This document shows positions 11,801 to 64,000 of a stretch of DNA of 64,000 bases, piece after piece (position 1 is the stretch's first letter; every line of letters begins with the position of its first letter). The notes below the pieces were generated by a model, which searched no databases, had not been told where the DNA came from, and saw only the letters and a list, made by a program, of their open reading frames with translations. Made by a program: the position numbers and the translations under genes. The stretch is from Euglena gracilis (Eukaryota): positions 39,827,816 through 39,891,815 of the forward strand of contig CP154954.1 of the NCBI GenBank assembly GCA_039621445.1, given 5' to 3'.

Positions 11801-11809
11801 CCCCCAAAA

Positions 11810-12170
11810 CGCAACCAGGGAGTTGCACTCACACAGCAGTACCCATGCCTGGGGGGGGGGGGGCTGGACATTCGAACAGGCGAAATTGTGCAAGAATTTT
11901 GGAGGGAAAACTCCCTTTTGCACATAAATGTCAAAGAATGAAGTGCAGCAATAAGCACAGTTCAAAGCCTCAGCCAGCCAGGGGAAACTGTGTCCCTATC
12001 CGTGGACAATCAAGTAATTTACTATTACTTGACAAAAGGGGGGGCAGAAAGGACCCTTTCAATTCCATGCTAAGACCCTTCTTCAAATGGTGCATGGAAC
12101 ACAAAATAAACCTGCAAGTGAAGTGGGTCCCCTCAAAAGACTGCCTGGCAGACCCCATAAGCAGGTGGGA
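11810..12170 (+). pseudogene. DIRS RNase H
   Basis: LHSHSSTHAWGG (first Asp lost)..HINVKE..SVDNQV..KWVPSKDCLADPISR. Confidence 0.85.
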
Positions 12171-12174
12171 AATG

Positions 12175-12630: not shown

Positions 12631-13490
12631 GGGAAACAAGCACAAAATTCGACCATTAACGATTTCCTGGGCAGAAACCCCAGTTTAAAGCGTTATCAAA
12701 GCGCTTTTACGCTTTTATGGGTAATTTTGGACAAGATGGGGGTATCCCCCCTGATGCCACCACTGACCAAGTGGTTGACACTTTAATTCAACTGTTTCAA
12801 TTTTCAAAGGCCCAAGCACGCAATGCATACAGTGCTATGCTATTGATTCCTGGCTTTGGAGGCCTCAGGTTCCATGCCATGTTGGCACCTTATAAAAGGC
12901 TTTGAAACCAAAACCCGGAGAGATATGGGGCATTCTGGGATCCCCTCCCAATCCTCCTGGGGCTGGCACAGTCCCCCCTGCCCTCTGATATATGTACATT
13001 GCGTACAAAACTCATTTTCTGTTCACGAATCCTCTGTTTATACAGAAGTTCAGATTTGGCACAGGTCCAAAGAACCACCAGTGTGTTGGGGGGGGGCACC
13101 CTACATCAAAATTAAACGTAAAGGGCAAAATCTCCATAAGTGGGAGAGAGTTGTCTCCATTCCCCAGTGCCCCCCGTTCAGTCCCTTCCATTTAATGACG
13201 TCTTATGTGGCAGCAACACGTTTCTTTATGAAACCTGGGGGCCCCCTGTTGATTTCGTTAAAACCCCCCTACAAAGCCATTAAGGCAGATACCATTGCTT
13301 CTATCACCAAAGACTTTTTGACCAAACAGGGGGTACCCCCCAGGTTTGGGGACCCCACTCCACCAGAGGGGCAGGGGTGGGTCTGCTAAAAAAAATTGGG
13401 TCTTTCTGCCCAAGAAGTTTGTGAAATTGGTCAATGGAAGGGGGTGGAGGCTTTCACAGCCCATTATCAAAGACTTGGTGCCCAAGGTTC
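12589..13490 (+). pseudogene. DIRS tyrosine recombinase
   Basis: LYRSSDL (R), IKRKG (K), HSTRGAG (HxxR), GQW (W), AFTAHY (Y); interrupted by stops and frameshifts. Confidence 0.9.
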
Positions 13491-13532
13491 TTTGGAGAAT
13501 GCCCTGGCCCCCCTTTTTTCGGTGCACAATCT

Positions 13533-13635
13533 GGCCTCACAAGGGCAAAGTGCGGAGCCCGAGGTGTCTCGTACTCCCTCGAGGCGGACCGAGAAGGGAG
13601 GAAGGGACACCGAGGGCGAACCACAAAGACATTGT
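13533..13635 (+). other. DIRS internal complementary region (ICR), circle-junction template
   Basis: Junction CCCGAGGTGTC|TCGTACTCCCTCGAGG at 13568/13569 joins complements of the left and right termini. Confidence 0.85.
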
Positions 13636-13774
13636 GAGCCCAACCCCCCACCCGTTGAAGAAAATTTGTCTTCAAACGCCCTCGGTCAGAGGATGGGGGC
13701 CAGGGGGGGGGCTAAGGGGGGGGGAACCCCCCAGGGAAAAAGACAGCGCCATGGTCGCCACGTCGGAGACAATG

Positions 13775-13937
13775 CAGCCAACTCCGGCGAGGCGGCACTA
13801 AGCGGAACCTCCTCACCCATGCGCAGCGAACAATCACACAACAAACCGCCGGCGAGCAAGGCATGGCCTGACAATGTCTTTGTGCTTCGCCCTCGGTGTC
13901 CCTTCCTCCCTTTTCGGCTTTCCTCGAGGGAGTATGA
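13775..13937 (+). repeat. DIRS right inverted terminal repeat plus extension
   Basis: 13775-13869 is inverted relative to the left LTR. 13871-13937 is inverted relative to ICR 13569-13635. Confidence 0.85.
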
Positions 13938-16351: not shown

Positions 16352-18767
16352 AATTACAGGTGCCCCCCAAAAAATAAAAACAGTAAAAAAGGAGCTGGGA
16401 AAATGGTGAAAAAAGATTAAATGTCAAAAAGGCAACTGGCTGCAATTTTGGGCCAAATCAGATGCAATCTAATTGCCCTGCCCTTTCTAAGGGCCTCTGC
16501 GGATGCCCTGGCAATATTTTTGGTGGAAAATTCCACAGCCCCCTGGGACTCAAAACACCCCATTTCCCAAAGAATAAAGGACCAATTAAGAGAAATAAAA
16601 ATTCTGCTGGACACCTGGGCGGGCAGACCCTTCCCCCAAAATGCAACCAGGGAGTTGCACTCACATAGCAGTACCCATGCCTGGGGGGGGGGGGGGGCTG
16701 GACATTCGAACAGGCGAAATTGTGCAAGAATTTTGGAGGGAAAACTCCATTTTGCACATAAATGTCAAAGAATGAAGTGCAGCAATAAGCACAGTTCAAA
16801 GCCTCAGCCAGCCAGGGGAAACTGTGTCCCTATCCGTGGACAATCAAGTAATTTACTATTACTTGACAAAAGGGGGGGCAGAAAGGACCCTTTCAAATCC
16901 ATGCTAAGACCCTTCTTCAAATGGTGCATGGAACACAAAATAAACCTGCAAGTGAAGTGGGTCCCCTCAAAAGACTGCCTGGCAGACCCCATAAGCAGGT
17001 GGGAAATGGACAGGGGGGATTACTCACTGGACCCCCAACTTTTTCAATGGCTGAGGCAGCAGTTCAAAAATTACATCAGCCCGAAAACAGACCTTTTTGC
17101 CTCACCAGGCAACAAGAAAATGCCACAATTTGTGGCCAGGTGGCCCCACTGGGAAGCAACAGCAGTGGATGCACTGCAATGTCCACTGGACAACATGGGG
17201 GATCTTTATGCAAACCCCCCATGGTCTGTATTCCAAAATTTTCTCCCCAGATTAAAAATGTTTCCACGGGCCAAAGTTTTGATGGTCACCCCCTTTTGGG
17301 ATTCAGCCACATGGTGGCCCCAATTAATAAAAATGAAAGTTCCAGGGACCCCCTGCCTGAAAATCACCCCCTACATGGGTATGTTCACCAATTGCAGGGG
17401 GGAAAAAATGCCACCCCCAGGTGGCCCCTGCTTTGCACGATTTGCTCAGGCAAATTCTGGAGGGGAAACAAGTACAAAATTCGACCATTAACGATTTCCT
17501 GGGCAGAAACCCCAGTTTAAAGCGTTATCAAAGCGCTTTTACGCTTTTATGGGAAATTTTGGACAAGATGGGGGTATCCCCCCTGATGCCACCACTGACC
17601 AAGTGGTTGACGCTTTAATTCAACTGTTTCAATTTTCAAAGGCCCAAGCACGCAATGCATACAGTGCTATGCTATTGATTCCTGGCTTTGGAGGCCTGAG
17701 GTTCCATGCCATGTTGGCACCTTATAAAATGCTTTGAAACCAAAACCCGGAGAGATATGGGGCATTCTGGGATCCCCTCCCAATCCTCCTGGGGCTGGCA
17801 CAGTCCCCCCTGCCCTCTGATATATGTACATTGCGTACAAAACTCATTTTCTGTTCACGAATCCTCTGTTTATACAGAAGTTCAGATTTGGCACAGGTCC
17901 AAAGAACCACCAGTGTGTTGGGGGGGGCACCCTACATCAAAATTAAACGTAAAGGGCAAACTCTCCATAAGTGGGAGAGAGTTGTCTCCATTCCCCAGTG
18001 CCCCCCGTTCAGTCCCTTCCATTTAATGACGTCTTATGTGACAGCAAAACGTTTCTTTATGAAACCTGGGGGCCCCCTGTTGATTTCGTTAAAACCCCCC
18101 TACAAAGCCATTAAGGCAGACACCATTGCTTCTATCACCAAAGACTTTTTGACCAAACAGGGGGTACCCCCCAGGATTGGGGGCCCCACTCCACCAGAGG
18201 GGCAGGGGTGGGTCTGCTGAAAAAAATTGGGTCTTTCTGCCCAAGAAGTTTGTGAAATTGGTCAATGGAAGGGGGTGGAGGCTTTCACAGCCCATTATCA
18301 AAGACTTGGTGCCCAAGGTTCTTTGGAGAATGCCCTGGCCCCCCTTTTTTCGGTGCACAATCTGGCCTCACAAGGGCAAAGTGCGGAGCCCGAGGTGTCT
18401 TGTACTCCCTCGAGGCAGACCGAGAAGGGAGGAAGGGACACCGAGGGCGAACCACAAAGACATTGTGAGCCCGACCCCCCACCCGTTTAAGAAGATTTGT
18501 CTTCAAACGCCCTCGGTCAGAGGATGGGGGCCAGGGGGGGGCTAAGGGGGGGGGAACCCCCCAGGGAAAAAGACAGCGCCATGGTCGCCACGTCGGAGAC
18601 AATGCAGCCAACTCCGGCGAGGCGGCACTAAGCGGGACCTCCTCACCCATGCGCAGCGAACAACCACACAACAAACCGCCGGCGAGCAAGGCATGGCCTG
18701 ACAATGTCTTTGTGCATCGCCCCCGGTGTCCCTTCCTCCCTTTTCGGCTTTCCTCGAGAGAGTATGA
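16352..18767 (+). mobile_element. Tandem copy 3 of the DIRS 3' half
   Basis: Near-identical to copy 2; offset 2414 bp. Confidence 0.93.
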
Positions 18768-18786
18768 AATGTGTCAGCCACTTGAC

Positions 18787-44625: not shown

Positions 44626-45773
44626 AAACCTATTTTCTGGGCCCGACGCCTGTCTTGAAATTCTACTGACATTAACGGATTTCAGGCTGAAATTGTTTAT
44701 GTCGGTCGATTTCCATTCAGGCGCCCGTTTATGTCGGTCGATTTCCATTCAGGCGCCCGTTTATGTCAGTCGATTTCCATTCAGGCGCCCGTTTATGTCG
44801 GTCGATTTCCATTCCATTGAAATCTGTTGCTGGTCAGATTGGGAATTTTTAGGGACTTTTTGGACATTTTGGATTTCCCTTTTTTTCGACATTTTTGGTC
44901 CTATGGGGTTGTGGAGGAGCTATGGATCAGACAAAAACCAAATTTTGTGGCCAGGTGATCACAGCTGGCTGAACTTTGGATGGAACAGACGGAAGGACGG
45001 TATTTAAGATTATTATTTTCTGGATCTTCAGAAAAAGCATTCGGCAAATTTGTCCTGAACCAGTTGTCATCACTGGTCATCTGAAAGAAAACCTTTCGGG
45101 TGAGGAGTGATTTGGCAATGTCAAACCTATTTTCTGGGCTTGACGCCTGTATTGCAATTATATTGACATCGTCGGATTTCGGGCCAAGGCTGTGTTCATA
45201 GCAACATGGCTTTGGTCAAAATCTGTCTTTCTAAAAAAAACGCAGTCTCTGGCCTGAGTCTGTGTTTCGAAACGCTCAGTCTGTTATTCGGCCTGAGTCT
45301 GCGTTTCGAAACGCAGACTCAGGTCAGAGTCTGCGTTTAAGACGCAGTTCTTGATATAGAGATTGAAAAAAGAAAAAAGCAGTCCGAAAAAAAAGGCAAA
45401 AGGTTGGTCGACATTAACGGGCTTCAGGCTGAAACTGACAATGTCCCGAAACCGAACAAAAAGGCATTCAAAAAAGGAAACAAAAGGTTGGTCGATTTCC
45501 AAGACATCGGAAACCGTTTATGTCAGTCGATTTCCAATCAGGCGCCCGTTTATGTCAGTCGATTTCCATTCAGGCGCCCGTTTATGTCGGTCGATTTCCA
45601 TTCAGGCGCCCGTTTATGTCGGTCGATTTCCATTCAGGCGCCGTTTATGTCAGTCGATTTCCATTCAGGCGCCCGTTAATGGGCCAAAAACCACCTTTTT
45701 GACCATATTTCCGTCCAGGCGGTTCGGTCGAATGAATATCAAGACAGGCGTCGGGCCCAGACAAAATAGGTTT
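44626..45773. mobile_element. TA-flanked non-autonomous TIR element A with internal 32-bp tandem repeats
   Basis: ~40-bp TIR AAACCTATTTT(GT)CTGGGCCCGACGCCTGTCTTGA, with TA on both sides. GTTTATGTC(G/A)GTCGATTTCCATTCAGGCGCCC occurs ~4x at 44695-44815 and ~5x at 45516-45680. Confidence 0.85.
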
Positions 45774-45776
45774 TAG

Positions 45777-45880
45777 AAAAATCGACCGACACTAACAGAT
45801 TCAGCAGGGGCGCCGGGCGGCTCGCTTCGCTCGCTCGCGCCCGGCGCCCCTGCTGAATCTGTTAGTGTCGGTCGATTTTT
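45777..45880. repeat. Perfect palindrome P1: 43-bp arms, 18-nt loop
   Basis: 45777-45819 is the exact reverse complement of 45838-45880. Loop GCTCGCTTCGCTCGCTCG. Confidence 0.95.
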
Positions 45881-46144
45881 GTATAAAAACCGTTAACCGT
45901 TCACGGGCTTCCCCACGTGAGGAAACGGGGTGCGTTCACGGGTGCGCACTGCGGCACCCGTGAACGGACCCCGTTTTCACATATGCGCACCCGTGGTCGG
46001 TTCACGGGTGCACAGACGGCAGCCGTGGACGGAATTTTACATTAAAAAAAGGGAAAACATTTACGCAGTAGGGAAGAGGATTTGAAACAAATGGCGAACC
46101 TGGTGAACTTGAGGGGTGGGGGCAGGAATGCAAGAGGTGGCATA

Positions 46145-48195: not shown

Positions 48196-48922
48196 TTTTG
48201 GGGCCCTCGAACCGTTGGCCAACTAAAGGGGTTTGCCCCCCAAAAAGGGTGGGTAACACAAGGGATTTTCCCCCAAAACGACTGGGTAACACAAGGGATT
48301 TTGTTATTTTGGGGCCCTCGAACAGTTGGGCAACAAAAGGGATTTGCCCCCCCCCCCCAAAACGGGTGGGTAACACAAGGGATTTTGTTGTTTTGGGGCC
48401 CTCGAACAGTTCGGCAACCAAAGGGATTTGCCCCCCCAAAACGGATGGGTAACACAAGGGATTTTGTTATTTTGGGGCCCTCGAACAGTTGGGCAACAAA
48501 AGGGATTTGCCCCCCCAAAACGAATGGGTAACACAAGGGATTTTGTTATTTTTGGGGCCCTCAAACAGTTCAGCAACAAAAGGGTTTTGCCCCCCCCCCC
48601 AAAAACGGGTGGGTAACACAAGGGATTTTGTTATTTTGGGGCCCTCGAACCGTTGACCAACAAAAGGGATTTGCCCCCCAAAACGGGTGGGTAACACAAG
48701 GGATTTTGTCATTTTGGGGCCCTCGAACAGTTCGGCAACCAAAGGGATTTGCCCCCCCAAAACGGGTGGGTAACACAAGGGATTTTATTATTTTGGGGCC
48801 CTCGAACAGTTCGGCAACCAAAGGGATTTGCCCCCCCAAAACGGGTGGGTAACACAAGGGATTTTGTTATTTTGGGGCCCTCGAACAGTTGGGCAACAAA
48901 AGGGATTTGCCCCCCAAAACGG
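48196..48922. repeat. 78-bp satellite block 3
   Basis: Resumes the monomer broken at 44625 (..GATTTTGTTA | TTTTGGGGCCC..). Confidence 0.95.
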
Positions 48923-49616
48923 TGTTGGGGTTGCCCCTCCTGAGGTCCCTGTGAAGGGACCCCTGGCGGCGCAACCCGCGTAGGATCGTTTAAATTTGAG
49001 CCCGTCGGGCCCACAGGGTTTTCCTCTTGGTGAAAAAGTGGGGTAGGGGTTGGTGTTGGTGTAGGTGAAGCCGCAGAATTGGAAAAATACATACTTTTGG
49101 GGTCCACTCAATTGAACTTGATTGAATAATCTGGTCAATGCCTTGGACTTGTTTGCTATTTGAACTTTCCTTGATTTCTTTGTACTTTGAATTGGCTTGC
49201 AATGCAAAACAATTGACGCCAAATGTCAAACAAAACAGAGTGTGAACAGAGCCCTGTGAACAGAAAATGTACAATTGGAGGGGGGCTACAGCTGGGGGGG
49301 GCTACTTGGTATACTTTGCGCAATTCTTAATGAATTGCGCCATCCCAAGCGCCCACCAAGGGGGTGCGCATGCTTGCGCAAAGCCCAGCAGGGCTTGCGC
49401 ATCCCCTTGGGGGTTGCCTGTTGGCCCCCTCAAACTGCCCCCTCCTTTACCTTCCCTTGGCTTGGTCAAAATGGGCTGTGGGGCCCCCTTGGGGGCCATT
49501 GGGGCCTCAAAAGGCCCTTGGGGGCCTTGGAGCCCCCCTCGCGGCCCTTCGTGGCCCCTTTGGGCCCCCTTGGAACCCCTCCTTGGGGCGGGCACCCTCG
49601 GACCGCGCACAGCACA
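48923..49616. mobile_element. Probable solo LTR (694 bp) inserted in a satellite monomer
   Basis: TGT...ACA termini with a 4-bp TSD, ACGG (48919-48922 and 49617-49620). The satellite resumes in register. Confidence 0.65.
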
Positions 49617-49978
49617 ACGGGTGGGTAACACAAGGGATTTTGTTGTTTTGGGGCCCTCGAACAGTTGGGCAACAAAACGGATTTGCCCCACAAAACGGGT
49701 GGGTAACACAAGGGATTTTTTTTATTTTGGGGCCCTCAAACAGTTCGGCAACCAAAGGGATTTACGCCCCAAATGAGTTGGAATACACAAGGGATTTTGT
49801 TATTTTGGGGCCATCGAACAGTTCGGCAACAAAAGGGATTTACGCCCCAATTGTTGGATTACACAAGGGATTTGCCCCCCCGAAACGGGTGGGTAACACA
49901 AGGGATTTTGTTATTTTGGGGCCCTCGAATAGCTGGGCAAAAAAAAGGGATTTGCCCCCCAAATCAGTTGGGTTACAC
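49617..49978. repeat. 78-bp satellite block 4, degenerating edge
   Basis: The same monomer with increasing divergence. Confidence 0.9.
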
Positions 49979-50749
49979 CAGGGCTGGATAGAGGTAGAGG
50001 GATAGAGGTAGAGGTAGAGGTAGAGGTAGAGGTAGAGGTAGAGGTCACCTCTACCTCTACTATCCCTCTATGTCACCTCAAGGTCAAACTTTTGAGGAAA
50101 GTGGCTAATCAAGGCTCCCGGATCTGGCCTGGGGGGGGGGGGTTGTGGGCAGACCCCAGGGTCTGCCCACGGTCGCCAAAGGTCGCCAAAGGTCGCTATG
50201 GGTATTTCCTACTCAGTCTTTTTTGCATTGTAGCGGCGTAGGCAACTGTTCCAGGGCCCTAAAAAAAAAATCCCTTGTGTGTGCAACACCTTTTGTGTGT
50301 ATGTTGCGCTAATTTGCCGTGGAGCGCATTTTTTGACATCGACCTGCCCACGACCTTTGGCGACCATGGCGACCTTTGGCGACCCTAGGGTCTGCCCACA
50401 ACCCCCCCCCCCCCAGGCCAAATCTACCCCCGCTAATCAAAGAAAATTGATGCCGAACGAAGGCAATTTTATGGAAAAAGTCAGAAATTGGCCATTCTTG
50501 TTACAAATCTCTTATGACAATTTTTGAAACCACCCATCTGGATATTTTTCTCATTCCTAACCTAAATAAGATGCGTTGAGATGCTAATTGGCCAAATTTG
50601 ATGCATTTGGAGCCTTTTGTGGCCTTTATTGGTGCCAGTTTATGACATTTTATGGACATAGAGGTGACATAGAGGTAGAGGTAGAGGTAGAGGTGGGTCA
50701 GATAGAGGTAGAGGACTTTGACCTCTACCTCTACCTCTATCCAGCCCTG
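49979..50749. mobile_element. hAT/P-like MITE with (GAGGTA)n subterminal repeats
   Basis: TIR CAGGGCTGGATAGAGGTAGAGG. TSD GTTACAC (7 bp, or 8 bp if one G was lost). Confidence 0.85.
50113..50431. mobile_element. Nested MITE with a 9-bp TSD (Mutator-like pattern)
   Basis: TSD GCTAATCAA at 50104-50112 and 50432-50440. Inverted TGGCCTG(G)nTTGTGGGCAGACCC arms and GGTCGCCAAA repeats. The same terminus recurs inverted at 52271-52290. Confidence 0.8.
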
Positions 50750-51422
50750 GTTACACAGGCTGCTTTTCTTCTGGAGTGTTTATAAACTGCCAAACATTTT
50801 TGTAGGCGACATGTATGCAGCTCCAGCATACTTTGGCATCATTTCATTTGTCTGTGGCATGCCTTCAAAATGTTTTTTTTGACAAATATTTATTCCAACA
50901 AATCCTGTGATGGTTTTCTTCTGGACAGTGATCTGGATCTTTCTGTGCATCTTTCATGCTACATCTGGCACATTTCATTGTTCATCTTTTGGATGATGAA
51001 TGGGAGCCACAGGGATTTAGTTCATGATTGAGCAAATGATGCTCATTTGGTTCATTTTCACAGGACATTGAGATTAAGACAGAGTTGATTTCAATGGAAA
51101 GAAAGATTCAATTACCAAAGTTGGATTTGAATGGAGTGTTTTGAAGTCAATTGAAGGTGTGCCTTTTTTTCATTAATTGCATATTAATTGCAGATTGGTT
51201 TGCTTTTCTTAATTGGTTCGTGCGGCCTTGATTGTTGTCCATGTTCTTGTGTGTTAGTTTTAAGTTTTTGAAGCTTTTTTGATGAAATTTTCAAAAAAAT
51301 GAAATTTTCAACCTGAAAATTGAACGCGCACTTAAAATTTTTTGGGTTCCTCAACCGCAAAAACCCCCCCTTTTTGAAGCTTTTTTAATTTTCATAAAAT
51401 TACACGGACGAGAATGACACCG

Positions 51423-51494
51423 ACCCCTGTAGCATAGCGGTCGTGTGGTTAGCGTGTGAGCGGTAGGTCGCGGGTTCGAATCCCGCCGGGGGGC
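51423..51494 (+). tRNA. tRNA-like sequence (probable tRNA-Thr(TGT)-derived pseudogene or SINE head)
   Basis: Box A TAGCATAGCGG; intact T arm GCGGG-TTCGAAT-CCCGC; acceptor stem with 6/7 pairs; TGT in the anticodon position, but the anticodon stem pairs poorly; T5 run downstream. Confidence 0.6.
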
Positions 51495-51820
51495 GATTTC
51501 GTGTTTTTCCTGATTTGAGGCGAGGAGTAGAGGTTATTGCTTTTTGGAAGGGAGGAATTGTTTTTTTTTTGGTCCGGCCGGCTGACGGAATAGACATTGG
51601 TCCGGCTTGACGGACGGCCGGCGAAAAAATGCTTCGTCCGGACGGACGGCTGGGTATCCAGCATAGGTCCGGCTGAAGAGGTCCGGACGGCTCGGACGGA
51701 CGGACGGCCAGCCGCCCCCACAAGATATTGTTATTTTGGGGGGCAACCAGGGGGGGTTTCCCGTCGTGGGGTGGGGGTCGACCATGGTCGCCCCCCGACT
51801 AGGGGGGGGGTTTCCGCCGT

Positions 51821-52080
51821 GGGGGCGACGGCAGTACAGTTGGGGTTTTTTGGGGACCCCCCCCTGTACAGTTGTGATTTTTGGGACCCCCCCCAGTGCC
51901 GAACCGTCCGAGACAGATGAAAATTTTGACACCAAAAATGGCCTTTTTAGACCAAAAAAAGGCCTTAAAAATTTTTTCCGGCGCCTTCAGCGCCGGTTTT
52001 TGGCCAATTTTTGAGGGGGGGTTGGCAGTGCAGTTGGGAACCCAGGACCCTCCCCCCCCCCCTGTGTCGAGACAGTACAG
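51821..52080. mobile_element. MITE fragment of the same family as 46145-47224
   Basis: GGGGCGACGGCAGTACAGTTGG terminus, CTGTACAGTT, GAGACAGATGAAAA and a central CCGGCGCCTTCAGCGCCGG hairpin. Confidence 0.55.
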
Positions 52081-55000
52081 CAAAAAGTGCCAAAAATGCA
52101 AAAAAAAAAAACGGACCCCAGGGCCCCCCCTCCCCCCCTCCCATAGCTCCGTGGGGTGGGGGACCCCCCGGGTCGCCTCGGTCGCCCCCCCCACAACCCC
52201 CCCCCCCCCAACCGAGAGCGACCGAGGGCGACCGAGGCGACCGTGGGTCGACCATGGTCGACCCCCACTACCCCCCCCCCCCAGGCCATATCCGGGAGCC
52301 AGCCCCAGGAGTGGGCAAAGGTAGGTTGAGTGGCCCCGGAAAAGTGGCCGTTTTTCTGAGTGGCCGACCCCCCTGACTGACTGACTGGCTGGTTTTCCAA
52401 AGAATGAGTGACTGACTGGTTTTTAAAAAAGTGGAGTGACCCCCCCCTTCCCGCCCGGGGGTCGTCAAAAAATTGCATGGCCCCCCCATGGGAGATCAGG
52501 CGGTGAACTTTGGGTTCTTCGGGCGGGACCCCCCCCCATTGTCCCCAGTTTCTCCATTGAAATTCCTTTGGGGGCGAAGCCGCCCCCCCCCCCTGCCTAA
52601 CCTCCATGCCCCGATTAACAGCTGAAAATTGTCAAAGTTTTGCAAAAAATTCAGGGGTTTGGCAGGTGTAACCCCCCCGAATGGCAAAATTTTGACCAAC
52701 ATGGCCAGGTGGTGCATAATGGCCATGTGCGCACCTGACCTTCCTTTTATAACCCTAAAAATTCCGACTTAGAAAAACTTCACTGGCGGCCCCTTGCCGA
52801 ACAAGTACCGATCGGGGCATGGCGTGGATGGGGGGCTGCAGCAGCTGCTGGCTGTCGGTGATCAACCTCACAATGCAGTTGTGTCTGCTCCATTGGAACT
52901 GCTAGTCTTTTCCTCACATAATAAGGCTGTTCCATTGCACTTTGTGCGATAGTAATCCCACTAGGATAAGAACAGAAATAGCAGCGGGGTTGGCATTTGT
53001 GCCCTTATTGCAGGGGCAGTTGGTGTTGGCTCTCACCGGTTCATTTGGGCCGGGAGGGGTTGTAACCCCAAAGGTACCCCCCTTGGAGATCCCAGTGACA
53101 CCCTCTTTAATCCCTAGCATCCTTAGAAATGATGGCCCAGTTTCGGCGCAGGGGGGGGGCAGAATGGGAAAAAACTTCCGACGCAGGTTGGCTCAAGGAG
53201 CCAAGGGGGTTTTGGGGTCGTGGGGGGGGGGGGCGCGGGGGGGGGGGTCGCGGGGGGGAAATGTGGTTTCGCGGCAGGAGTCATTGCGTTTTGGACTCGT
53301 GTGACATCATCCTGTCTTCTAATTTTAGATCCCAATTAGGAATTTGCGTGCCATTTGGGTCCGAAAATAGGTCCAATTAGGAATTTGGGACCAAATTTTC
53401 GAATTTTTGATTCCTAATTGAGCGGCAAATTCCTAATTAATGCGAATTTTTAGTACTTTTTGGAAGCCCGAATTGGGCTCAGGGTGGGGTCGGGGGGGGT
53501 CGCGGGGGGGGGTCGCGGGGGGGGGGGGTTGCGGGGGAAACACCCCCCAAGAAATGATCGAACCACTGGAAACTGGCCTGGGGCAGGGGTTTCCGCATCA
53601 CGGCAGCAGGGCCGCATAATAGTTGGCAATCTGTTTTTGGGGGGGGGCTTTGTTTTTGTTGTTTTTTTTAAAATTCTAACAATGTTTTTTTTTAAGAAAA
53701 AAACAAAAAAAACGCCAACAAGGTTTTGCTCGGAAAATTTTTTGAATGCATATTTTCAATCATTTTTGGCAAGTTTTGGGGCACTTCTGCCAAAAATTTC
53801 CTTAAACAAAAAATGAAAAAAGTCCTAAAGTTGCATTTTTTTGCATTGTTTGGATGTTTTTGACCATTTTTTTTGGCAATTTTGAACTTAGTAGGATTCG
53901 CAGTATGGTTTGGGTGTTTCATGACGAGTTTTTTTCAATGAAATTTTCCTTTTGTTTTTTTAATGTTTTTTTTGGCGTTTTTTTCAAAAAAAACACGTTG
54001 TTTTGTTTTTTTTTAAAAAAAACAAAACAAAAAAAGCCAAGTATGCAGGGCCGATGCATGTTTTTCCTTTAGCCTTCTGTCGGAAATTTTGGGTTGGAAA
54101 TCCCTGCTCAGAATATTTTCTTTGATGATTTGCCCAATCTCAGATGGCAAATCTGACGATTGGAGTTTCAGGGAACAGGGAGTTGGGAACCGAAACCAGT
54201 TTGGCTGAACTCAAAACCCCCACAAATGGGGTCAGAGCAAAAGTGGAGCAGGCAGAGGAAAACCACGCCAGCTCTACTTCCACTCGACGACCCCGAACTC
54301 CAGTTTCATCACCAGGCAGTGATGAAGTTCAGCAAAAACGGCAACCGTTTCGCAACCATTCTAGATGTATCCCCCACAAAATTTACAGCTCGTAAAAAGG
54401 TGTCTGTGCCACTTGTCGGCGGGTTCGGTTCGCCCCACCACCGTTGTGACACAAATTGACCTTGGTGGGAAGCACAGCTTCACCCAGACCGTGCCCCGGG
54501 CCCAGGGAAGCGTCTCTTTTGGCCCTCGCCATAAGGAGAAACTACTCATGACTCCCTGTGCGCTCACAGGTCAGCGGTAGCTATACTGATGGTTTTACAA
54601 AGAGGTGTTCGGTGACTGGGTGAAATTTTTGACCTTCCTTTTTCACCGTTTGTTGCGCGATCATCGCAATTCCGAAATCGATGAAGTTCAACGCAACAAC
54701 AATTGTGCATTTGTTGTGCACACTGCTGGTGTGTTTTGTTTTGTGGTTGGTTGGGCCTCAACCATCATCAGCCTCAACCAATGCCAATTGTTTTTGCAAA
54801 AGCGACAAAAATTGCCAGGGAAAAACAATTCAAAAAGAAATGAAACAGCATCAATGTGCCTCTAATTCAGTTCGGGTTGAGACAAGTCACAACAAAAAGG
54901 AAAGTGAAGAGTGACATTTTTTGTGGAATTTTTTCCCGTGTTTTTTTTGGATTGTTTTGCTGGTTTGCTTTATTGGGTTTTTGTCAACTTTTAAAAATGC

Positions 55001-56224
55001 AAAAAAACAAAAGCTTCTTAGTGGTCTTATGCAGGCTCAGAAATGTTTTCTGCTTTAGTCCGCTCTAATTTTTCTTTGATGATTTGCCCAATCCAGATGC
55101 AGCTCTGACGAACGCAGGTGGTTGTCATAAAAAAAACTCAGTGGAGTGCAGTGCAGTGTTGGCCTCATTGCCCAACTCCTGTGTTGTGATTTGAAGGCAA
55201 CTCATCCAGCACTCCAACCCAGAACTGCGTCAATGCCAACCACTGGCTCCTCCATGCTGCTGCATTTTGCTGCTTGTCACGAGTCCCATGTGCACCTCAT
55301 CAATGAAGCAGGTGAAATGCTTGGGTGCCAAAAGATGCAAGTGCCAAACGTTGCAACTGTCAGCTGTCACTTGACAGCTCAAACAAAGACGGTTCTTCTT
55401 CACTGCTCGACCGCCACCCCCCCAAACAACAACACTTTGGTTCTTGAAGGAATGGGTTTGGGTCAGGGTCAGGGTCAGGGTGGAGGTGAGGGTCAGGTTC
55501 AGGGCAGCTGGCGGTTGAGTGGTGAACAAGTGCCACCAAGACTTTTTCCCAGAAACCTGCAGTTCATGACATCGATTGCTCAGACCAAGCATTCCACCGT
55601 CCGGACCCTGTGCAGTCATGTTTGAGCAATCAAACAGCTGACCCCTACCGATGCCTTTCAAATGGTGGTACTTGTTCGCCAAGGGACCTTCACCCAAAAT
55701 TTTACAAGTCGGTTCCCCTGAGGCCTGAATCGTGGTTGTCTGACACATCTCATGGTTTGGGGTGGGCAAGAGTGTTTGCTGCCAGCACCTTCACAACGGG
55801 GGGTAATTCCCTTGTGGAGGCAAAATGTCGGGGGCTTTGACTTTCTTCATCCCTGCCAGTCGTCTGCTTTGGGATGGCAGGGCAATCCGAAACCCTGCCC
55901 CCAAGGTACCCCTCCTCTTATTGCCCCACCCCCCCGGTGAGGGAGGTCCCCAAAAAACCCCAACTGGACTGCCGTCGCCCCATTGACCCCCCCCATTTGA
56001 CCGATCGCCCCGCCCCCCTAATTGACTGTCTGGGGGGATTCCGTGCTGAAGCGCCGCCTAATTGACAGCACCCCCCCCCCCTACTTGAACCCCCACCCAC
56101 TAATTGACCAAAAGGGTGGTACAAAAAAGCCAGCCATTTTTAGCCATTTTGGTCTGTTTCGAAGCCTTTTTCATTCTTTCCTTCTCTGTCACAGCTCCAG
56201 CACCGCCCTCCCGCCCCCGATCAC

Positions 56225-59200
56225 CTGGTGATCGCCGGCGCCCCTCCCCTTCCTCACCCACACAATCGCTCCTGACCAAAATGGCATCCTTGGTGAGAAA
56301 AGTCGGACAGAAACTCATTAAAAGGGGGGTTAAACCTCACAAATTGTGATGGGAAACGCAAACTGCAAAGACCTTCACAGGGAAAATATCCATGATGTGA
56401 GCAGGGCGATTTGGGCACACTTTTGGTGATAAACTTGGAGTATTTCCACACACTTGGAGCGATTCCGTGCTGGCATTTCCTCCCCGCCCCTCTCCCTGCC
56501 CTCCCCACGCCGGCGCACAGGGTTGCATGGGAAGTTGCGCAGACATGAGGAAGGTGGCAGGGGAGGGTCACCCCCCCCCTGGGGGGGTGAGGTGGCAGAG
56601 TCCCCCAGTGTCAGAAGGGGGGTCCTCCCACACCCACCTCCTCTGCGGGGGCAAAAAAAAATCTTCCGGCGCTCTCTTGAGAGTCAGCATAATTTTTGGC
56701 AAATGGCACAAATGGCTGTAGCTCGGGACAGGCAGGGAGTTGCGGGGGAATCGATTTGGTTTTCCTGACATTTCCTCTGATTCCCTGCCATTTCTCAGAA
56801 TTTCCCAGAGAAATTGATTTCTCTGGTACTGGGAAAAGTGGCCAAAATTTTCGGCAACCGAAAACTGGGAGGCGGAGGCCAGGTCCTCCCACCCCCCCCT
56901 CCAGTTTTGGAAGGGCGCTCCCCCCCACTCCTCCGAGATTCCCATACGACTGTGCCGCCGAATCACCTCGTGATCGCCGGCCCCGCCGCCCTCCCCCTTC
57001 GCCTCGCCCTCCCCACGCCGGCGCACAGGGTTGCATGGGAAGTTCCGCATACAGAGGTTGGTGGTAGCACACCCCCCCCCCCCACCAAGGGGGGCAAGGT
57101 GGCGGAAAGGGGGGAGGCAAACAAAAATCTTCCGGCGCTCACGACGGGTGTGCATTTTGGGACCCTCTTGAGGGTCAGCATGAAATTTTGGCAAATGGCC
57201 GAAAAATGGCCGTAGCTCGGGACAGGCAGGGAGTTGCGGGGAAATCAAAATACTGTTGGATTGACATTTCCTGACATTTCCTCTGATTCCCTGCCATTTC
57301 TCAGAATTTCCCAGAGAAATTGATCTTTTTTAACCTGAAAAACGGCCAAAGATTTCGGTGACCGAAAACTGGGCAGGGTCCTCCCCCCCCCAGTTTTGGA
57401 AAGGTGCTCCCCCCCCCCACTCCCTCGTCCGAGGTTCCCATACGGCCCTGCTGCCGCATCACGTGGTGGTCGCCGGCCCCGCTGCCCTCCCCCTTCGACG
57501 CTCCCTCCCCCTTCGACGCTCCCTCCCCACGCCGGCACACAGGGTTGCATGGGAAGTTCCGCAGACAGAGGACCCCCCCCTGGAGGCAAGGTGGCGGAAA
57601 GGCGGGGGGGGCAAAAAAAATCTTCCGGCGCTTCATGCCGGGGGTGCATTTTGGGACCCTCTTGAGGGTCAGCATGAAATTTTTGGCAAATGGCCACAAA
57701 TGGCCGTAGCTCGGGACAGGTGGGGAGTTGCGGGGAAATCAAAATACTGTTAGATTGGGCATTTTCAGGGCTTCAATTTGGTTCTCCTGACATTTCCTCT
57801 GATTCCCTGCCATTTTTGAGAGACACCAAAAAAAACTGATTTTTTATTTAACCCGGACGATGGCCAAAATTTTCGGCGAACGAAAACTGGGTCCTCCAAC
57901 ACCCCCCCCAGTTTTGGAAGGGCGCTCCCCCCCACTCCTCCGAGATTCCCATACGACCGTGCCGCCGAATCACCTGGTGATCGCCGGCCCCCTTCGCCTC
58001 GCCCTCCCCCTTCGCCTCGCCCTCCCCCTTCGACGCTCCCTCCCCACGCCGGCGCACAGGGTTGCATGGGAAGTTCCGCATACAGAGGTTGGTGGTAGCA
58101 CACCCCCCCCCACCAAGGGGGGCAAGGTGGCGGAAAGGGGGGGGGCAAACAAAAATCTTCCGGCGCTTCACGCCGGGTGTGCATTTTGGGACCCTCTTGA
58201 GGGTCAGCATGAATTTTTGGAAAATGGCCGAAAAATGGCCGTAGCTCGGGACAGGCAGGGAGTTGCGGGGAAATCAAAATACTGTTGGATTGACATTTCC
58301 TGACATTTCCTCTGATTCCCTGCCATTTCTGAGAGAAATTCCCAGAGCAACTGATTTTTTTTAACCTGAAAAACGGACAAAGATTTCGGCGACCGAAAAC
58401 TGGGCAGGGTCCCCCCCCCAGTTTTGGAAAGGTGCTCCCCCCCACTCCCTCGTCCGAGATTCCCATACGGCCCTGCCACCGCATCACGTGGTGGTCGCCG
58501 GCCCCGCTGCCCTCCCCCTTCGACGCTCCCTCCCCCTTCGACGCTCCCTCCCCATGCCGGCACACAGGGTTGCATGGGAAGTTCCGTCCAAGTTGGATTG
58601 GGCATTTTCAGGGCTTCAATTTGGTTCTCCTGACATTTCCTCTGATTCCCTGCCATTTTTGAGAAACACCAAAAAAAAACTGATTTTTTATTTAACCCGG
58701 ACGATGGCCAGAATTTTCGGCGAACGAAAACTGGGTCCTCCAACCCCCCCCCCCAGTTTTGGAAGGGCGCTCCCCCCCACTCCCTCCTCCGAGATTCCCA
58801 TACGACCGTGCCGCCGAATCACCTGGTGATCGCCGGCCCCGTCGCCCTCCCCCTTCGCCTCGCCCTCCCCTTTCGCCTCGCCCTCCCCCTTCGACGCTCC
58901 CTCCCCACGCCGGCGCACAGGGTTGCATGGGAAGTTCCGCATACAGAGGTTGGTGGTAGCACCCCCCCCCACCAAGGAGGCAAGGTGGCGGAAAGGGGGG
59001 GGCAAACAAAAATCTTCCGGCGCTTCACGCCGGGTGTGCATTTTGGGACCCTCTTGAGGGTCAGCATAGAATTTTTGGCAAATGGCCGAAAAATGGCCGT
59101 AGCTCGGGACAGGTGGGGAGTTGCGGGGAAATCAAAATACTGTTGGATTGACATTTCCTGACATTTCCTCTGATTCCCTGCCATTTCTCAGAATTTCCCA

Positions 59201-60845
59201 GAGAAATTGATTTTTTTTAACCTGAAAAACGGCCAAAGATTTCGGCGACCGAAAACTGGGCAGGGTCCCCCCCCCCCAGTTTTGGAAAGGTGCTCCCCCC
59301 CACTCCCTCGTCCGAGATTCCCATACGGCCCTGCCGCCGCATCACCTGGTGATCGCCGGCCCCGCCACCCTCCCCCTTCGACGCTCCCTCCCCCTTCGAC
59401 GCTCCCTCCCCATGCCGGCACACAGGGTTGCATGGGAAGTTCCGCAGACAGAGGACCCCCCCCTGGAGGCAAGGTGGCGGAAAGGGGGGGGGCAAAAAAA
59501 ATCTTCCGGCGCTTCACGCCGGGTGTGCATTTTGGGACCCTCTTGAGGGTCAGCATGAAATTTTTGGCAAATGGCCACAAATGGCCGTAGCTCGGGACAG
59601 GTGGGGAGTTGCGGGGAAATCAAAATACTGTTGGATTGGGCATTTTCAGGGCTTCAATTTGGTTCTCCTGACATTTCCTCTGATTCCCTGCCATTTTTGA
59701 GAGACACCAAAAAAAACTGATTTTTTATTTAACCTGAACAATGGCCAAAATTTTCGGCGAACGAAAACTGGGTCCTCCCACACCCCCCCCCCAGGGTTCG
59801 ATATAAGGAGGGCGTACATGGTTTAGGTGGGGGGGGTGTCCCCCCCCACCCCCCCCCCTCCTGGCCCGCAGGGGGGGGTCCGGACCACCCCCCCCCCCAC
59901 CTGCAAGGGGGGTCCGGACCGACCCCGGGGGGCAAAAATTGACCCCCCCCAAAAGGGTCAATTTTTTCCTCCGGCGCTTCGCGCCGAAAATTTTTTGCAT
60001 TTTTGGCACATTTTTGCCCAAAAAGTGCCCAAAATGGCACTTTTGGTCGTTTTGGGGGTCAAAAATTTTCGGCCACCCTGACCGCGCACCTGTTTAGGGG
60101 GGGGGGTTGTCCCCCCCACCCCCCCCCCTCCTGGCCCGCAGGGGGGGGACCGGACCCCCCCCACCTGTCCTTATATCGAACACTCCCCCCCCCCAGTTTT
60201 GGAAGGGCGCTCCCCCCCTCCCTCCTCCGAGATTCCCATACGACCGTGCCGCCGAATCACCTGGTGATCGCCGGCCCCCTTCGCCTCGCCCTCCCCCTTC
60301 GCCTCGCCCTCCCCCTTCGACGCTCCCTCCCCACGCCGGCGCACAGGGTTGCATGGGAAGTTCCGCATACAGAGGTTGGTGGTAGCACACCCCCCCCCAC
60401 CAAGGGGGGCAAGGTGGCGGAAGGGGGGGGGCAAACAAAAATCTTCCGGCGCTTCACGCCGGGTGTGCATTATTTTGGGACCCTCTTGAGGGTCAGCATG
60501 AATTTTTGGCAAATGGCCGAAAAATGGCCGTAGCTCGGGACAGGCAGGGAGTTGCGGGGAAATCAAAATACTGTTGGATTGACATTTCCTGACATTTCCT
60601 CTGATTCCCTGCCATTTCTGAGAGAAATTCCCAGAGCAACTGATTTTTTTTTAACCTGAAAAACGGACAAAGATTTCGGCGACCGAAAACTGGGCAGGGT
60701 CCCCCCCCCCCCGGTTTTGGAAAGGTTGTCCCCCCCACTCCCTCGTCCGAGATTCCCATACGGCCCTGCCACCGCATCACGTGGTGGTCGCCGGCCCCGC
60801 TGCCCTCCCCCTTCGACGCTCCCTCCCCACGCCGGCGCACAGGGT
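56225..60845. repeat. ~510-bp tandem repeat with alternating A/B monomers (~1.03-kb dimer)
   Basis: The anchor CCCCACGCCGGC(G/A)CACAGGGT recurs at about 56503, 57011, 57525, 58042, 58550, 58903, 59408, 60329 and 60824. One unit has a ~160-bp deletion and one has a MITE insertion. Confidence 0.93.
59792..60185. mobile_element. hAT-like MITE (394 bp) inserted in a C-run of the 510-bp repeat
   Basis: TIR CAGGGTTCGATATAAGGA / TCCTTATATCGAACACTC. Internal ~70-bp direct repeats. The host repeat resumes in register. Confidence 0.85.
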
Positions 60846-60884
60846 CACCCTGGCCCTGCCGGCCTGCCAGCCCAAACTGCTGGC

Positions 60885-61939: not shown

Positions 61940-64000
61940 ATTAGGCAGTTTTTTCAGTATTATTCGGGGAGGCTCGCGGGGGTGGGGGGGGGGGCGGGAT
62001 TTTTTGGGGCCAGATTGCCTCAATGCCAGGAAATTCGGGGGTGCCAAAAAGTGCGACCAGCCCCCGGGACCAGGTCGGCTGGGTTCCCCGCCCCCCCAAA
62101 ACCCCACTGCCACCGGAACCACTGCTGGTAAAACACCCCGCAATAGCGAAATTTGGGCAATTTTTTCAGTACAATTCGGGGCGGCTGGTGGGGGTGGGGG
62201 GGGGGGCGGGATTTTTTGGGGCCAGATTGCCTCAATGCCAGGAAATTGGGGGGTGCCAAAAAGTGCGACCAGCCCCCGGGACCAGGTCAGTCGGCTGGGT
62301 TCCCCGCCCCCAAAAACCCTCTTGCCACCGGATCCACTGCTGGTGAAACACCCCGCAATAGCGAAATTTTGGCAATTTTTTCAGTATAATTCGGGGCGGC
62401 TGGTGGGGGGGGGGGCGGGATTTTTTGGGGCCAGATTGCCTCAATGCCAGGAAATTGGGGGGTGCCAAAAAGTGCGACCAGCCCCCGGGACCAGGTCGGC
62501 TGGGTTCCCCGCCCCCAAAAACCCCACTGCCATTGGAACCACTGCTGGTAAAGCACCCCGCAATAGCGAAATTTTGGCAATTTTTTCAGTATAATTCGGG
62601 GCGGCTGGTGGGGGTGGGGGGGGGGCGGGATTTTGGGGGGCCAGATTGCCTCAATGCCAGGAAATTCGGGGGAGCCAAAAAGTGCGACCAGCCCCCGGGA
62701 CCAGGTCGGCTGGGTTCCCCGCCCCCAAAAACCCTCTTGCCACCGGATCCACTGCTGGTAAAACACCCCGCAATAGCGAAATTTTGGCAATTTTTTCAGT
62801 ATAATTCGGGGCGGCTCGCGGGGGTGGGGGGGGGGCGGGATTTTTTGGGGCCAGATTGCCTCAATGCCAGGAAATTCGGGGGTGCCAAAAAGTGCGACCA
62901 GCCCCCGGGACCAGGTCGGCTGGGTTCCCCGCCCCCCAAAAACCCTCTTGCCACCGGAACCACTGCTGGTAAAACACCCCGCAATAGCGAAATTTTGGCA
63001 ATTTTTTCAGTTCAATTCGGGGCGGCTGGTGGGGGTGGGGTGGGGGGGGGGGCGGGATTTTTTGGGGCCAGATTGCCTCAATGCCAGGAAATTGGGGGGT
63101 GCCAAAAAGTGCGGCCAGCCCCCGGGACCAGGTCAGTCGGCTGGGTTCCCCGCCCTCTTGCACCGGATCCACTGCTGGTAAAACACCCCGCAATAGCGAA
63201 ATTTTGGCAATTTTTTCAGTATTATTCGGGGCGGCTGGTGGGGGTGGGGGGGGGCGGGATTTTTTGGGGCCAGATTGCCTCAATGCCAGGAAATTCGGGG
63301 GTGCCAAAAAGTGCGACCAGCCCCCGGGACCAGGTCGGCTGGGTTCCCCGCCCCCCAAAAACCCCACTGCCACCGGAACCACTGCTGGTAAAACACCCCG
63401 CAATAGCGAAATTTTGGCAATTTTTTCAGTATTATTCGGGGCGGCTGGTGGGGGTGGGGGGCGGGCGGGATTTTTTGGGGCCAGATTGCCTCAATGCCAG
63501 GAAATGGGGGGTGCCAAAAAGTGCGACCAGCCCCCGGGACCAGGTCGGCTGGGTTCCCCGCCCCCAAAAACCCCACTGCCACCGGAACCACTGCTGGTAA
63601 AACACCCCGCAATAGCGAAATTTTGGCAATTTTTTTCAGTACAATTCGGGGCGGCTGGTGGGGGTGGGGGGGGGCGGGATTTTTGGGGTCCAGATTGCCT
63701 CAATGCCAGGAAATTCGGGGGTGCCAAAAAGTGCGACCAGCCCCCGGGACCAGGTCGGCTGGGTTCCCCGCCCCCAAAAACCCCACTGCCACCGGAACCA
63801 CTGCTGGTAAAACACCCCGCAATAGCGAAATTTTGGCAATTTTTTTCAGTACAATTCAGGGCGGCTGGTGGGGGTGGGGGGGGGGCGGGATTTTTTGGGG
63901 CCAGATTGCCTCAATGCCAGGAAATTGGGGGGTGCCAAAAAGTGCGACCAGCCCCCGGAACCAGGTCGGCTGGGTTCCCCGCCCCCAAAAACCCCACTGC
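61940..64000. repeat. ~210-bp tandem repeat, about 10 copies, running off the window
   Basis: CCAGATTGCCTCAATGCCAGGAAAT recurs at about 62010, 62222, 62431, 62641, 62851, 63068, 63270, 63481, 63690 and 63901. Confidence 0.96.

Follow-up and report, generated by a model that had tools for sequence, protein, structure and literature searches.

The window, as we call the whole 64-kb stretch of Euglena gracilis DNA analysed here, contains at 54115-55880 an interval that a first-pass annotation had described as the signature of a strand-symmetric hypermutation of TA to TG and CA. We take this interval to be, most likely, non-coding nuclear DNA. Its left part (about 54104-54751) lies in high-copy repeat families, and its right part, which holds the longer of two TA-free runs, is a single-copy spacer whose transcription was not seen in RNA run X21. 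The features recorded in and around the interval are the following.

53646..54038, no strand: A/T-homopolymer block with inverted repeats, in the left flank
54104..54751, no strand: high-copy repeat-family part, summed contig depth 3e4 to 4e5 (about 50-100 for single-copy contigs)
54113..54159, plus strand: shared 44-48-nt motif, first of two copies; the halves of the interval have no other homology to each other
54144..54395, plus strand: ATG-started frame of 83 codons, directly after the first motif copy and inside the high-copy family
54598..54862, no strand: 265-nt TA-free run, AT-rich, ordinary for the window
55067..55111, plus strand: shared motif, second of two copies, shortly before the longer TA-free run
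55130..55645, no strand: 516-nt TA-free run, single-copy, of normal complexity, with o/e of 0.29 for CpG, 1.80 for TG and 1.69 for CA
55131..55625, plus strand: open frame of 164 codons (the 159-aa frame of the first-pass annotation, there begun at GTG 55146), judged non-coding
55139-55158: simple repeat (CAGTG)x4, TA-free, inside the 516-nt run
55230..55790, minus strand: open frame of 186 codons, judged non-coding
55325-55356: 16-mer x2, a TA-free simple repeat inside the 516-nt run
55460..55504, no strand: microsatellite (GGGTCA) x7.5, inside the 516-nt run

The two halves differ in copy number. On the left, bin 54536-54751 is still high-copy, and a unique contig spans 54594-54908. RNA reads falling on 54104-54535 (X21 depth 3.4-6.2) belong to other copies of the family and carry the letters of those copies at 54240, 54281, 54299 and 54304. 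On the right, 55139-55705 is covered by single contigs only, at a depth of about 77 and with no second family. Neither the contigs of DNA run X1 (55139-55489 and 55460-55705, depth about 77) nor those of DNA run X13 (55139-55267 and 55238-55705) contain any other letters, and the 516-nt run is identical in these two DNA runs, which bear different organism labels. Of RNA run X21, about 5 in 100 reads were read; within these, depth over 54536-55615 was 0 to 0.12, with a mean of 0 in the four bins of 54536-55399.

The 24-nt core of the shared motif occurs exactly twice in the window, against none expected in shuffles, and a metagenome scan for the 44-48-nt motif returned no stretch. The second motif copy is preceded, at about 54900-55010, by a T-rich block similar to that at 53646..54038. 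For the 83-codon frame neither a Pfam family nor a homologue at near lengths was found. Rfam gave one weak tRNA over the window and, at E up to 1 on 53000-56500, eight sub-threshold rows of chance level.

Counting confirmed both runs on which the first-pass annotation had been built. TA is absent from 55130-55645 (516 nt, GC 0.52), where base composition predicts 29.5, and from the AT-rich 54598-54862 (265 nt, GC 0.42), where it predicts 22.1; the interval 54115-55880 contains 23 TA against 118.1 expected, which corresponds to an observed/expected ratio (o/e) of 0.19. The fair background for such runs is the window itself, in which TA o/e is 0.39. The loss of TA is not local: each of the twelve segments of the window is depleted (o/e 0.19-0.58), among them the satellite (0.31), a 500-bp array (0.28), a retroelement (0.36) and a tandem array with Dam-like ORFs (0.50). 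The depletion extends to all sixteen NTAN contexts (0.22-0.73, CTAG being the lowest) and is bound to no single longer motif. In the RNase H ORF of the retroelement, TA was counted 4, 2 and 4 times in codon phases 1-2, 2-3 and 3-1, against 15.3, 16.7 and 13.4 expected. The consensus sequences of three repeat families already have TA o/e of 0.28-0.49. The ratio is low in part because homopolymers are in excess; of the exits from T runs, a share of 0.17 goes to A, against about one third expected. All these figures come from 64 kb that consist nearly entirely of repeats, and to call the shortage genome-wide is to extrapolate. No account of TpA depletion in Euglena was found in the literature searched.

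Within the window, the flagged interval is nevertheless the minimum. Sliding windows of 516 nt (n 1221) have a median TA o/e of 0.35 and a first percentile of 0.17, and those of 1766 nt (n 586) a median of 0.36 and a minimum of 0.20, all eight of the lowest overlapping 54115-55880. Since TA is scarce in every sequence class of the window, the TA-free run marks the far end of a pervasive TA shortage in repeat-rich surroundings. Nor is it the scar of an attack on repeats, for it lies in single-copy DNA. The claim of repeat-directed mutagenesis fares no better in the window at large, where low-copy bins are poorer in TA (0.31, 9 bins) than high-copy bins (0.45, 21 bins).

How extreme the longer run is was determined by exact calculation from a first-order Markov chain with three training sets. 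Outside an (AGAAG)n microsatellite, no TA-to-TA gap in the window exceeds the one from 55128 to 55646. Gaps of at least 516 nt are expected 0.009 times per window when the chain is trained on the window, 0.001 times when trained on non-satellite DNA and 0.03-0.05 times when trained on 53.5-61.9 kb. The 516-nt run is therefore a tail event against the window's own Markov background (0.001-0.05 expected per window). The 265-nt run is ordinary, because 1.9-3.0 gaps of at least 265 nt are expected. Conditioning on its own run structure renders the 516-nt run rarer still: none of its 87 steps from T to another base ends in A, for which the per-position probability is 6e-8 if the background share (0.173) is applied and 3e-5 if the local one (0.113) is. 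Extrapolated to 1.5 Gb, the Markov models predict about 200 to 5,700 gaps of at least 516 nt. As the run is rarer than the window background predicts, there is room for a local cause of it.

Next, we consider the TG and CA that had been regarded as the products of TA loss. Methyl-CpG decay usually leaves TG and CA in excess, and the window is poor in CpG (o/e 0.53), the 516-nt run even more so (0.29). Over 75 windows, CpG o/e is negatively correlated with the mean TG/CA o/e (rho -0.51, p 3e-6), whereas TA o/e is correlated significantly with neither TG (rho -0.13) nor CA (rho -0.15). Among polarised changes, C>T at CpG amounts to 3/68 against 3/478 (OR 7.3, p 0.028), and in the majority-consensus spectrum to 14/71 against 26/287. 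The TG/CA excess follows the CpG deficit and not the TA deficit, which counts against the earlier reading of these dinucleotides. 5-methylcytosine at CpG is described for E. gracilis in a recent preprint (bioRxiv 10.64898/2026.05.21.726589). CpG decay was also considered as the cause of the TA deficit itself and rejected, the two ratios showing no significant co-variation (rho -0.18).

Direct traces of TA erosion were sought in substitution spectra. Polarised singletons within the window (85 events, 3,000 sites) include 9 TA losses against 5.2 expected and 4 gains against 9.5; T>C at T[A] accounts for 5/81 against 11/588. Where the window copy is compared with the majority of the other copies of its family (39 events), there are 5 losses against 1.95 expected and 7 gains against 6.15. 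Losses went to CA or TG in 7 of 9 cases in the first set and in 5 of 5 in the second. Pooled, the 124 polarised substitutions contain 14 TA losses against 7.15 expected (x1.96), with a P of 0.015 that is nominal, coming from one of several analyses and from a restricted singleton set chosen after seeing the data, and 11 gains against 15.65 (x0.70). Dividing the gain rate by the loss rate yields 0.36 (rough 95% interval 0.16-0.79), a value that matches the TA o/e of the window (0.39).

Other spectra do not agree. The majority-consensus spectrum has no excess of TA loss (4/37 against 33/315; 4/37 against 50/354), and in it TA gains (37, with 49.9 expected) outnumber losses (16). The all-singleton and majority-consensus spectra have opposite signs for TA, because 80 of the all-singleton events sit on a branch to which no direction can be assigned. 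Taken by themselves, the two tandem arrays yield 1 TA loss in 31 events. The satellite preserves its constant TA (251 and 252 of 252 monomers): 504 letters contain 1 change, compared with 19 changes in 6,779 letters for the other A/T columns of low variance. One satellite position carries the alleles TG (130), TA (103) and CA (17). Substitution evidence for TA erosion is thin and depends on the method. What stands of the proposed strand-symmetric TA to TG/CA process at the DNA level is a mild bias, to which the pooled losses weakly point; an effect of about two-fold is not hypermutation, and neither the satellite nor the majority-consensus spectrum leaves a place for it.

The retroelement permits a look at tyrosine codons, which the same process was thought to have removed. 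Its RNase H ORF is a mobile-element protein that shares 68% identity over 262 aa with a protein from the 90% cluster of a named Euglena gracilis transcript, which makes a euglenid source probable. A dinoflagellate origin was considered and discarded when a search for a spliced-leader motif gave no match. All three Tyr of the Euglena relative are retained in the ORF, and none stands opposite Cys or His; in an alignment with a plant relative, read by eye, 0 of 10 Tyr stand opposite Cys or His. A metagenome scan for relatives of the ORF gave 77 pattern stretches, none of which was confirmed. Tyr codons have not been purged from this real retroelement ORF.

A tie between TA loss and adenine methyltransferases, put forward earlier as speculation, found no support either: the preprint cited above places eukaryotic 6mA at ApT and not at TpA (bioRxiv 10.64898/2026.05.21.726589). 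It also reports E. gracilis retroelements with Dam-type adenine methyltransferase domains. The Dam-like ORFs of the window score 17.5 and 16.4 bits with Pfam Dam, below the cut-off of 28.1, and among their Atlas neighbours Dam and RT_RNaseH are present on a minority of members.

Taken together, we consider it likely that the interval is non-coding nuclear DNA, high-copy on its left and single-copy on its right, whose TA-free run is the tail of a pervasive bias, whose TG/CA excess derives from CpG decay, and in which a mild bias from TA to CA/TG may be at work. The TA scarcity would be kept up by a mild, strand-symmetric and context-dependent substitution bias to which all resident DNA is exposed. 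Losses of TA, mostly by transition to CA or TG, may run at about double the expected rate and gains somewhat below theirs, as the pooled spectrum weakly suggests. The 516-nt run would then be an extreme tail of this bias, helped by the TA-free simple repeats inside it, which total about 97 nt.

Instead of by mutation bias, the scarcity of TA might be kept by selection or biased fixation, acting through the physics of the TA step in chromatin, through avoidance of signals or target sites, or through biased gene conversion. Removal of new TAs would give just what the majority-consensus spectrum displays, namely fewer gains than expected (37 against 49.9) with no mutational excess of TA loss, and the uniformity of the depletion over contexts fits as well. 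We hold this to be unlikely, however: satellites, tandem arrays and untranscribed single-copy spacer, in which selection on any one site should be at its weakest, are depleted at least as strongly, and the best-polarised changes display an excess of losses and not merely missing gains.

It is also quite unlikely that the 516-nt run is a functional unit, a lineage-specific exon or a non-coding RNA, under selection against UpA beyond the general bias. Selection of this kind is universal in mRNA according to PMC3829696, and several properties of the run would suit such a unit: its rarity against the background, its fewer homopolymers than in the surroundings at normal complexity (439 distinct 6-mers, background median 435), and its identity in two DNA runs with different organism labels. 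In composition-matched simulations, open frames of at least 164 codons on both strands arise in 0.8%; a single frame of at least 186 codons, on the other hand, arises in 10.5%. The window as a whole contains 150 frames of at least 150 codons. None of the 15 frames of at least 70 codons in 53900-56000 belongs to a Pfam family. The homology search with the 164-aa frame gave three hits, all on its GQGQ low-complexity part and none a true homologue, and for the 186-aa frame there was no Pfam, sequence or feature-search match (Atlas recognition 1042, below 2300). In period-3 signal the 164-codon frame (1.96) stays below the RNase H ORF (5.85). No excess of RNA structure was detected in the run on either strand (fold z-scores -0.31 and +0.47), and X21 depth is at or near zero over 54536-55615.

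The amino acid composition of the 164-codon frame, open over 55131-55622 (8 Cys, 9 His, no Tyr), had been cited as a mark of mutated Tyr codons. The absence of Tyr with many Cys and His is merely the absence of TA read in one frame, and in a frame that has no homologue. Cys and His together make up only 17 of its 164 residues, so a true homologue should have surfaced in a plain homology search.

Comparably doubtful is a stronger form of the mutational reading, in which a lineage-specific, TA-directed mutagenic chemistry operates in euglenid nuclear DNA with about the strength of methyl-CpG decay. A thymine modification, base J, would be the candidate; base J was reportedly found in E. gracilis by Dooijes et al. 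in 2000. If true, such chemistry would push TpA down to 0.2-0.4 of expectation wherever DNA is neutral, with Tyr codons and other signals that contain TA surviving as a protected minority.

Finally, that a RIP-like process of opposite direction recognises repeats and hypermutates TA to TG/CA, perhaps via a modified T or methylated A, removing Tyr codons, is highly improbable: the TA-free runs are real, polarised losses go mostly to CA/TG in about two-fold excess and one satellite position segregates TG, TA and CA, yet the most TA-free DNA is single-copy, low-copy bins are the poorer in TA, the window copy of the high-copy families gained TA in 7 and lost it in 5 of the 40 differences listed, satellite TA is nearly invariant, the retroelement ORF keeps its Tyr (with no plant Tyr opposite Cys or His), and the TG/CA excess follows CpG.

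With the pervasive mild bias as the preferred reading, we have a first hint of TA to CA/TG substitution raised about two-fold in a protist genome that is large, rich in repeats and little explored. Should the full genome confirm it, this would bear on gene finding, as stop-poor DNA would give rise to long spurious frames everywhere, and likewise on codon usage, Tyr content and context-dependent mutation models.

Four known systems invite comparison. Fungal RIP acts on duplicated DNA and produces TpA, by changing CpA to TpA. It resembles the present case as a DNA-level transition bias that depends on dinucleotide context and changes codons; the change in the window runs the other way, is mild and bears most heavily on single-copy DNA. 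As a mechanism, RIP in mirror image would have meant a novel type of genome defence, which the evidence does not support. Methyl-CpG decay also depresses the TpA ratio indirectly (Duret and Galtier 2000, summarised in PMC3829696), and its marks are present in the window: CpG ratios of 0.53 and 0.29, a TG/CA excess proportional to the CpG deficit, and C>T raised at CpG. In contrast to what decay would lead one to expect, the block poorest in CpG, which is the tandem array with Dam-like ORFs, has a TA ratio among the higher ones (0.50). Avoidance of UpA in cytoplasmic mRNA, as treated in PMC3829696, is matched by the retroelement ORF, where TA is shunned in all three phases. The difference lies in the equally strong depletion of satellites and of DNA without seen transcription.

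The closest likeness is to the general under-representation of TpA in genomes, said to have been set out by Burge, Campbell and Karlin in 1992. In most eukaryotes TpA o/e is about 0.6-0.8. As in the window, this bias is strand-symmetric, extends over coding and non-coding DNA, is accompanied by an excess of TG/CA and is modelled as context-dependent loss of TpA; such mutation models are discussed in Simmonds et al. 2013 (PMC3829696). The window differs in degree (0.39 overall, 0.31 for low-copy bins). We are left with a familiar bias in an unusually strong form, the TA step being suppressed about as much as CpG.

The interval 54115-55880 holds 23 TA dinucleotides against 118.1 expected from base composition, an observed/expected ratio (o/e) of 0.19, and none at all in 55130-55645 (29.5 expected) and in 54598-54862 (22.1 expected). 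These counts agree with the TA scarcity and the two zero-TA runs claimed in the first-pass annotation. In sliding windows, the TA minimum of the whole window coincides with the interval bearing the TA-free run, and the gap 55128-55646 is the longest in the window, with the exception of the (AGAAG)n microsatellite at 5062-6770, in which TA and most other dinucleotides are trivially absent. The frame 55131-55622, open over 164 codons, lacks Tyr and has 8 Cys and 9 His.

Scarcity of TA is by no means restricted to this interval. Over the whole window TA o/e is 0.39 (CpG o/e 0.53), all 12 window segments are TA-poor (0.19-0.58, for example 0.36 in the retroelement and 0.50 in the tandem array with Dam-like ORFs), and each of the 16 NTAN contexts is depleted (0.22-0.73). 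Homopolymer steps are all over-represented (AA 1.60, CC 1.69, GG 1.59, TT 1.93). The retroelement RNase H ORF (1879-2739), which has clear homologues, avoids TA in every codon phase, with 4, 2 and 4 occurrences against 15.3, 16.7 and 13.4 expected.

Repeats of the window (positions within the window)
5062-6770: (AGAAG)n microsatellite, purine-only strand, about 340 units
11522-18770: three tandem 2.4-kb units, 98-99% identical, CpG o/e down to 0.07 in places
21165-44618, 48255-48922 and 49616-49962: 78-bp satellite (about 23 kb) with a 157-bp higher-order period, TA o/e 0.31
56482-60846: GC-rich tandem array, period about 500 bp, units 71-97% identical, TA o/e 0.28
61941-64000: GC-rich tandem array, period 210 bp, about 10 units of about 93% identity, TA o/e 0.40

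Because TA is rare, stop-free frames abound: 150 frames of at least 150 codons were counted in 64 kb, and only 5 of the 54 frames scanned outside satellites match a Pfam family. For this reason an open frame counts for little in this genome.

Copy number was estimated from public sequencing runs aligned to 50000-56450. Very high-copy families make up most of 50000-54751, with summed contig depths of 1e4 to 4e5 where single-copy contigs have about 50-100. The stretch 54752-55400 is single-copy, a state that 55400-55831 comes close to. Contigs of one DNA run (X1; 55139-55489 and 55460-55705) and of another under a different organism label (X13; 55139-55267 and 55238-55705) match the window without a single differing letter. 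No second copy of the interval was found within the 64-kb window, and the two halves of the interval share only a 44-48-nt motif (54113-54159 and 55067-55111). Both motif copies sit downstream of a T-rich block, and the first continues into an ATG-started 83-codon frame inside a transcribed high-copy family.

The 516-nt run is thus single-copy, which speaks against the proposed process aimed at repeats. Repeats would also be expected to be poorer in TA, and the trend over 30 depth bins is the opposite one (0.31 in low-copy and 0.45 in high-copy bins; rho +0.24, not significant). Among 252 full-length monomers of the 78-bp satellite (297 nhmmer hits), the letters of a constant TA are intact in 251 and 252 cases. 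This amounts to one change in 504 letters, whereas other A/T columns of low variance show 19 changes in 6,779. Columns 27-28 are polymorphic (TG 130, TA 103, CA 17, CG 1), perhaps because amplification multiplied the outcome of one or two events. Of the 40 best-supported differences between the window copy and the family majority, 5 had TA in the other copies and CA or TG in the window copy, and 7 (six dinucleotides) had TA in the window copy only. One CpG underwent a double change: at 51655-51656 almost every other family copy reads CG and the window copy TA.

How unusual is the 516-nt run? First-order Markov chains predict 0.009 gaps of at least 516 nt per window if the window itself is the training set; training on non-satellite DNA lowers the figure to 0.001, and training on the local 8.4 kb raises it to 0.03-0.05, so the verdict on chance depends on the background chosen. 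The run becomes rarer once its own structure is taken as given: none of its 87 exits from T goes to A (P 3e-5 with the local share set at 0.113). TA-free simple repeats account for about 97 nt of it. In 1.5 Gb the same models predict about 200 to 5,700 gaps of this length. Taken together, these expectations make the run a tail event, singled out by a very large scan, in DNA that has few TA in any case. The 265-nt run is ordinary, since 1.9-3.0 gaps of at least 265 nt are expected per window.

The rival explanation that the 516-nt run is a functional element gains a minor point from the frames of at least 164 codons found on both strands, which arise in 0.8% of composition-matched simulations; a 186-codon frame arises in 10.5%. 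Among 15 frames of at least 70 codons in 53900-56000, none matches a Pfam family. The 164-aa frame has low-complexity matches only among 1.84 billion representatives, and no homologue was found for the opposite-strand frame of 186 aa. Codon periodicity is weak (period-3 signal 1.96, versus 5.85 for the RNase H ORF) and folding energy is at the level of shuffles. In X21, the one raw RNA run, of which about 5/100 of reads were used, mean depth is 0 in the four bins of 54536-55399 and 0.1 in the next, and the reads on 54104-54535 (depth 3-6) bear letters of other family copies.

The presence of both TG and CA on one strand had been taken in the first-pass annotation to argue for a DNA-level, strand-symmetric process. 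Outside satellites, 75 non-overlapping windows of 500 nt show an inverse relation between mean TG/CA o/e and CpG o/e (rho -0.51, p 3e-6), and neither TG nor CA follows TA (rho -0.13 and -0.15); C>T substitutions are elevated at CpG. Since the excess tracks CpG and not TA, this signature is mainly ordinary methyl-CpG decay. As a cause of the TA deficit itself CpG decay was rejected, because TA o/e shows no covariation with CpG o/e (rho -0.18) and is higher in the block poorest in CpG. Only one 500-nt bin of the window, 45501-46000, has CpG above expectation (o/e 1.46), and two arrays of a 32-bp tandem repeat (44695-44814 and 45514-45681) adjoin it.

Nor does the loss of Tyr to Cys and His hold. 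A TA-free frame can contain no Tyr, so its absence is not independent evidence. The RNase H ORF retains all three Tyr of its Euglena relative, with no Cys or His opposite, and none of the ten Tyr of a distant plant relative stands opposite Cys or His (alignment read by eye).

Several substitution spectra were tried, and they are partly discordant. Scored against the majority consensus, three in-window families (407 events) give no excess TA loss (TA->CA 4/37 versus 33/315, TA->TG 4/37 versus 50/354; gains 37 with 49.9 expected, losses 16 with 17.7 expected). A singleton spectrum has the opposite sign (gains 9 versus 18.9 expected, losses 18 versus 11.5), but 80 of its events fall on a branch where polarisation is not possible. 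A restricted set of 85 well-polarised events at 3,000 sites, drawn from the 500-bp and 210-bp arrays (singletons), from a 1.1-kb family (its two close copies, set against an outgroup) and from the three 2.4-kb units, yields 9 losses versus 5.2 expected, 4 gains versus 9.5, and T>C at T[A] in 5/81 versus 11/588 (p 0.034). Independently, 39 events separating the window copy from the family majority include 5 losses versus 1.95 (P 0.048) and 7 gains versus 6.15. Pooled, losses are elevated 1.96-fold (P 0.015) and gains stand at 0.70-fold (P 0.15); the gain/loss ratio of 0.36 (rough interval 0.16-0.79) is near the observed TA o/e of 0.39. With P values uncorrected and the restricted set picked after the other spectra had been inspected, this is a hint, not a demonstration, of a mild TA-eroding substitution bias.

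Mobile-element proteins of the window offer a lead, though not proof, towards a Euglena-like source. The best relative of the RNase H ORF (67%) shares its 90% cluster with a named Euglena gracilis transcript; aligned directly, this relative and the ORF are 68% identical over 262 aa. Dam matches in ORFs of the 2.4-kb units are weak (17.5 and 16.4 bits, below cut-off), and Dam and RNase H domains occur on a minority of the members of their Atlas neighbours. Judged by these matches, the units are probably pieces of Dam-bearing retroelements, a kind described for E. gracilis in the portion consulted of a preprint (bioRxiv 10.64898/2026.05.21.726589). An excerpt of PMC11252322 gives an E. gracilis assembly of 2.37 Gb with 58.84% repeats. 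The tRNA-like element at 51422-51495 (Rfam tRNA, 31.9 bits; called by ARAGORN as an undetermined tRNA whose anticodon has four bases) lies in a high-copy bin and so may be a repeat of tRNA origin. At 53204-53540, 94 X21 reads carry a joint that goes back 307 between two G-run repeats, and loose poly-G ends are numerous; the probable cause is mis-joined repeats or a sequencing artefact at poly-G, not circular or duplicated RNA.

Of the proposed RIP-like mechanism only the weakest core finds some support, a DNA-level, strand-symmetric tendency for TA to be lost towards CA and TG; everything else is unsupported. This tendency seems to be pervasive and mild, not local, strong or repeat-aimed. Its strength in this lineage appears undescribed in the literature searched, while its kind is already known: TpA under-representation is a recognized bias, for which the part of PMC3829696 consulted presents context-dependent models, and the bias of the window is of the same kind.
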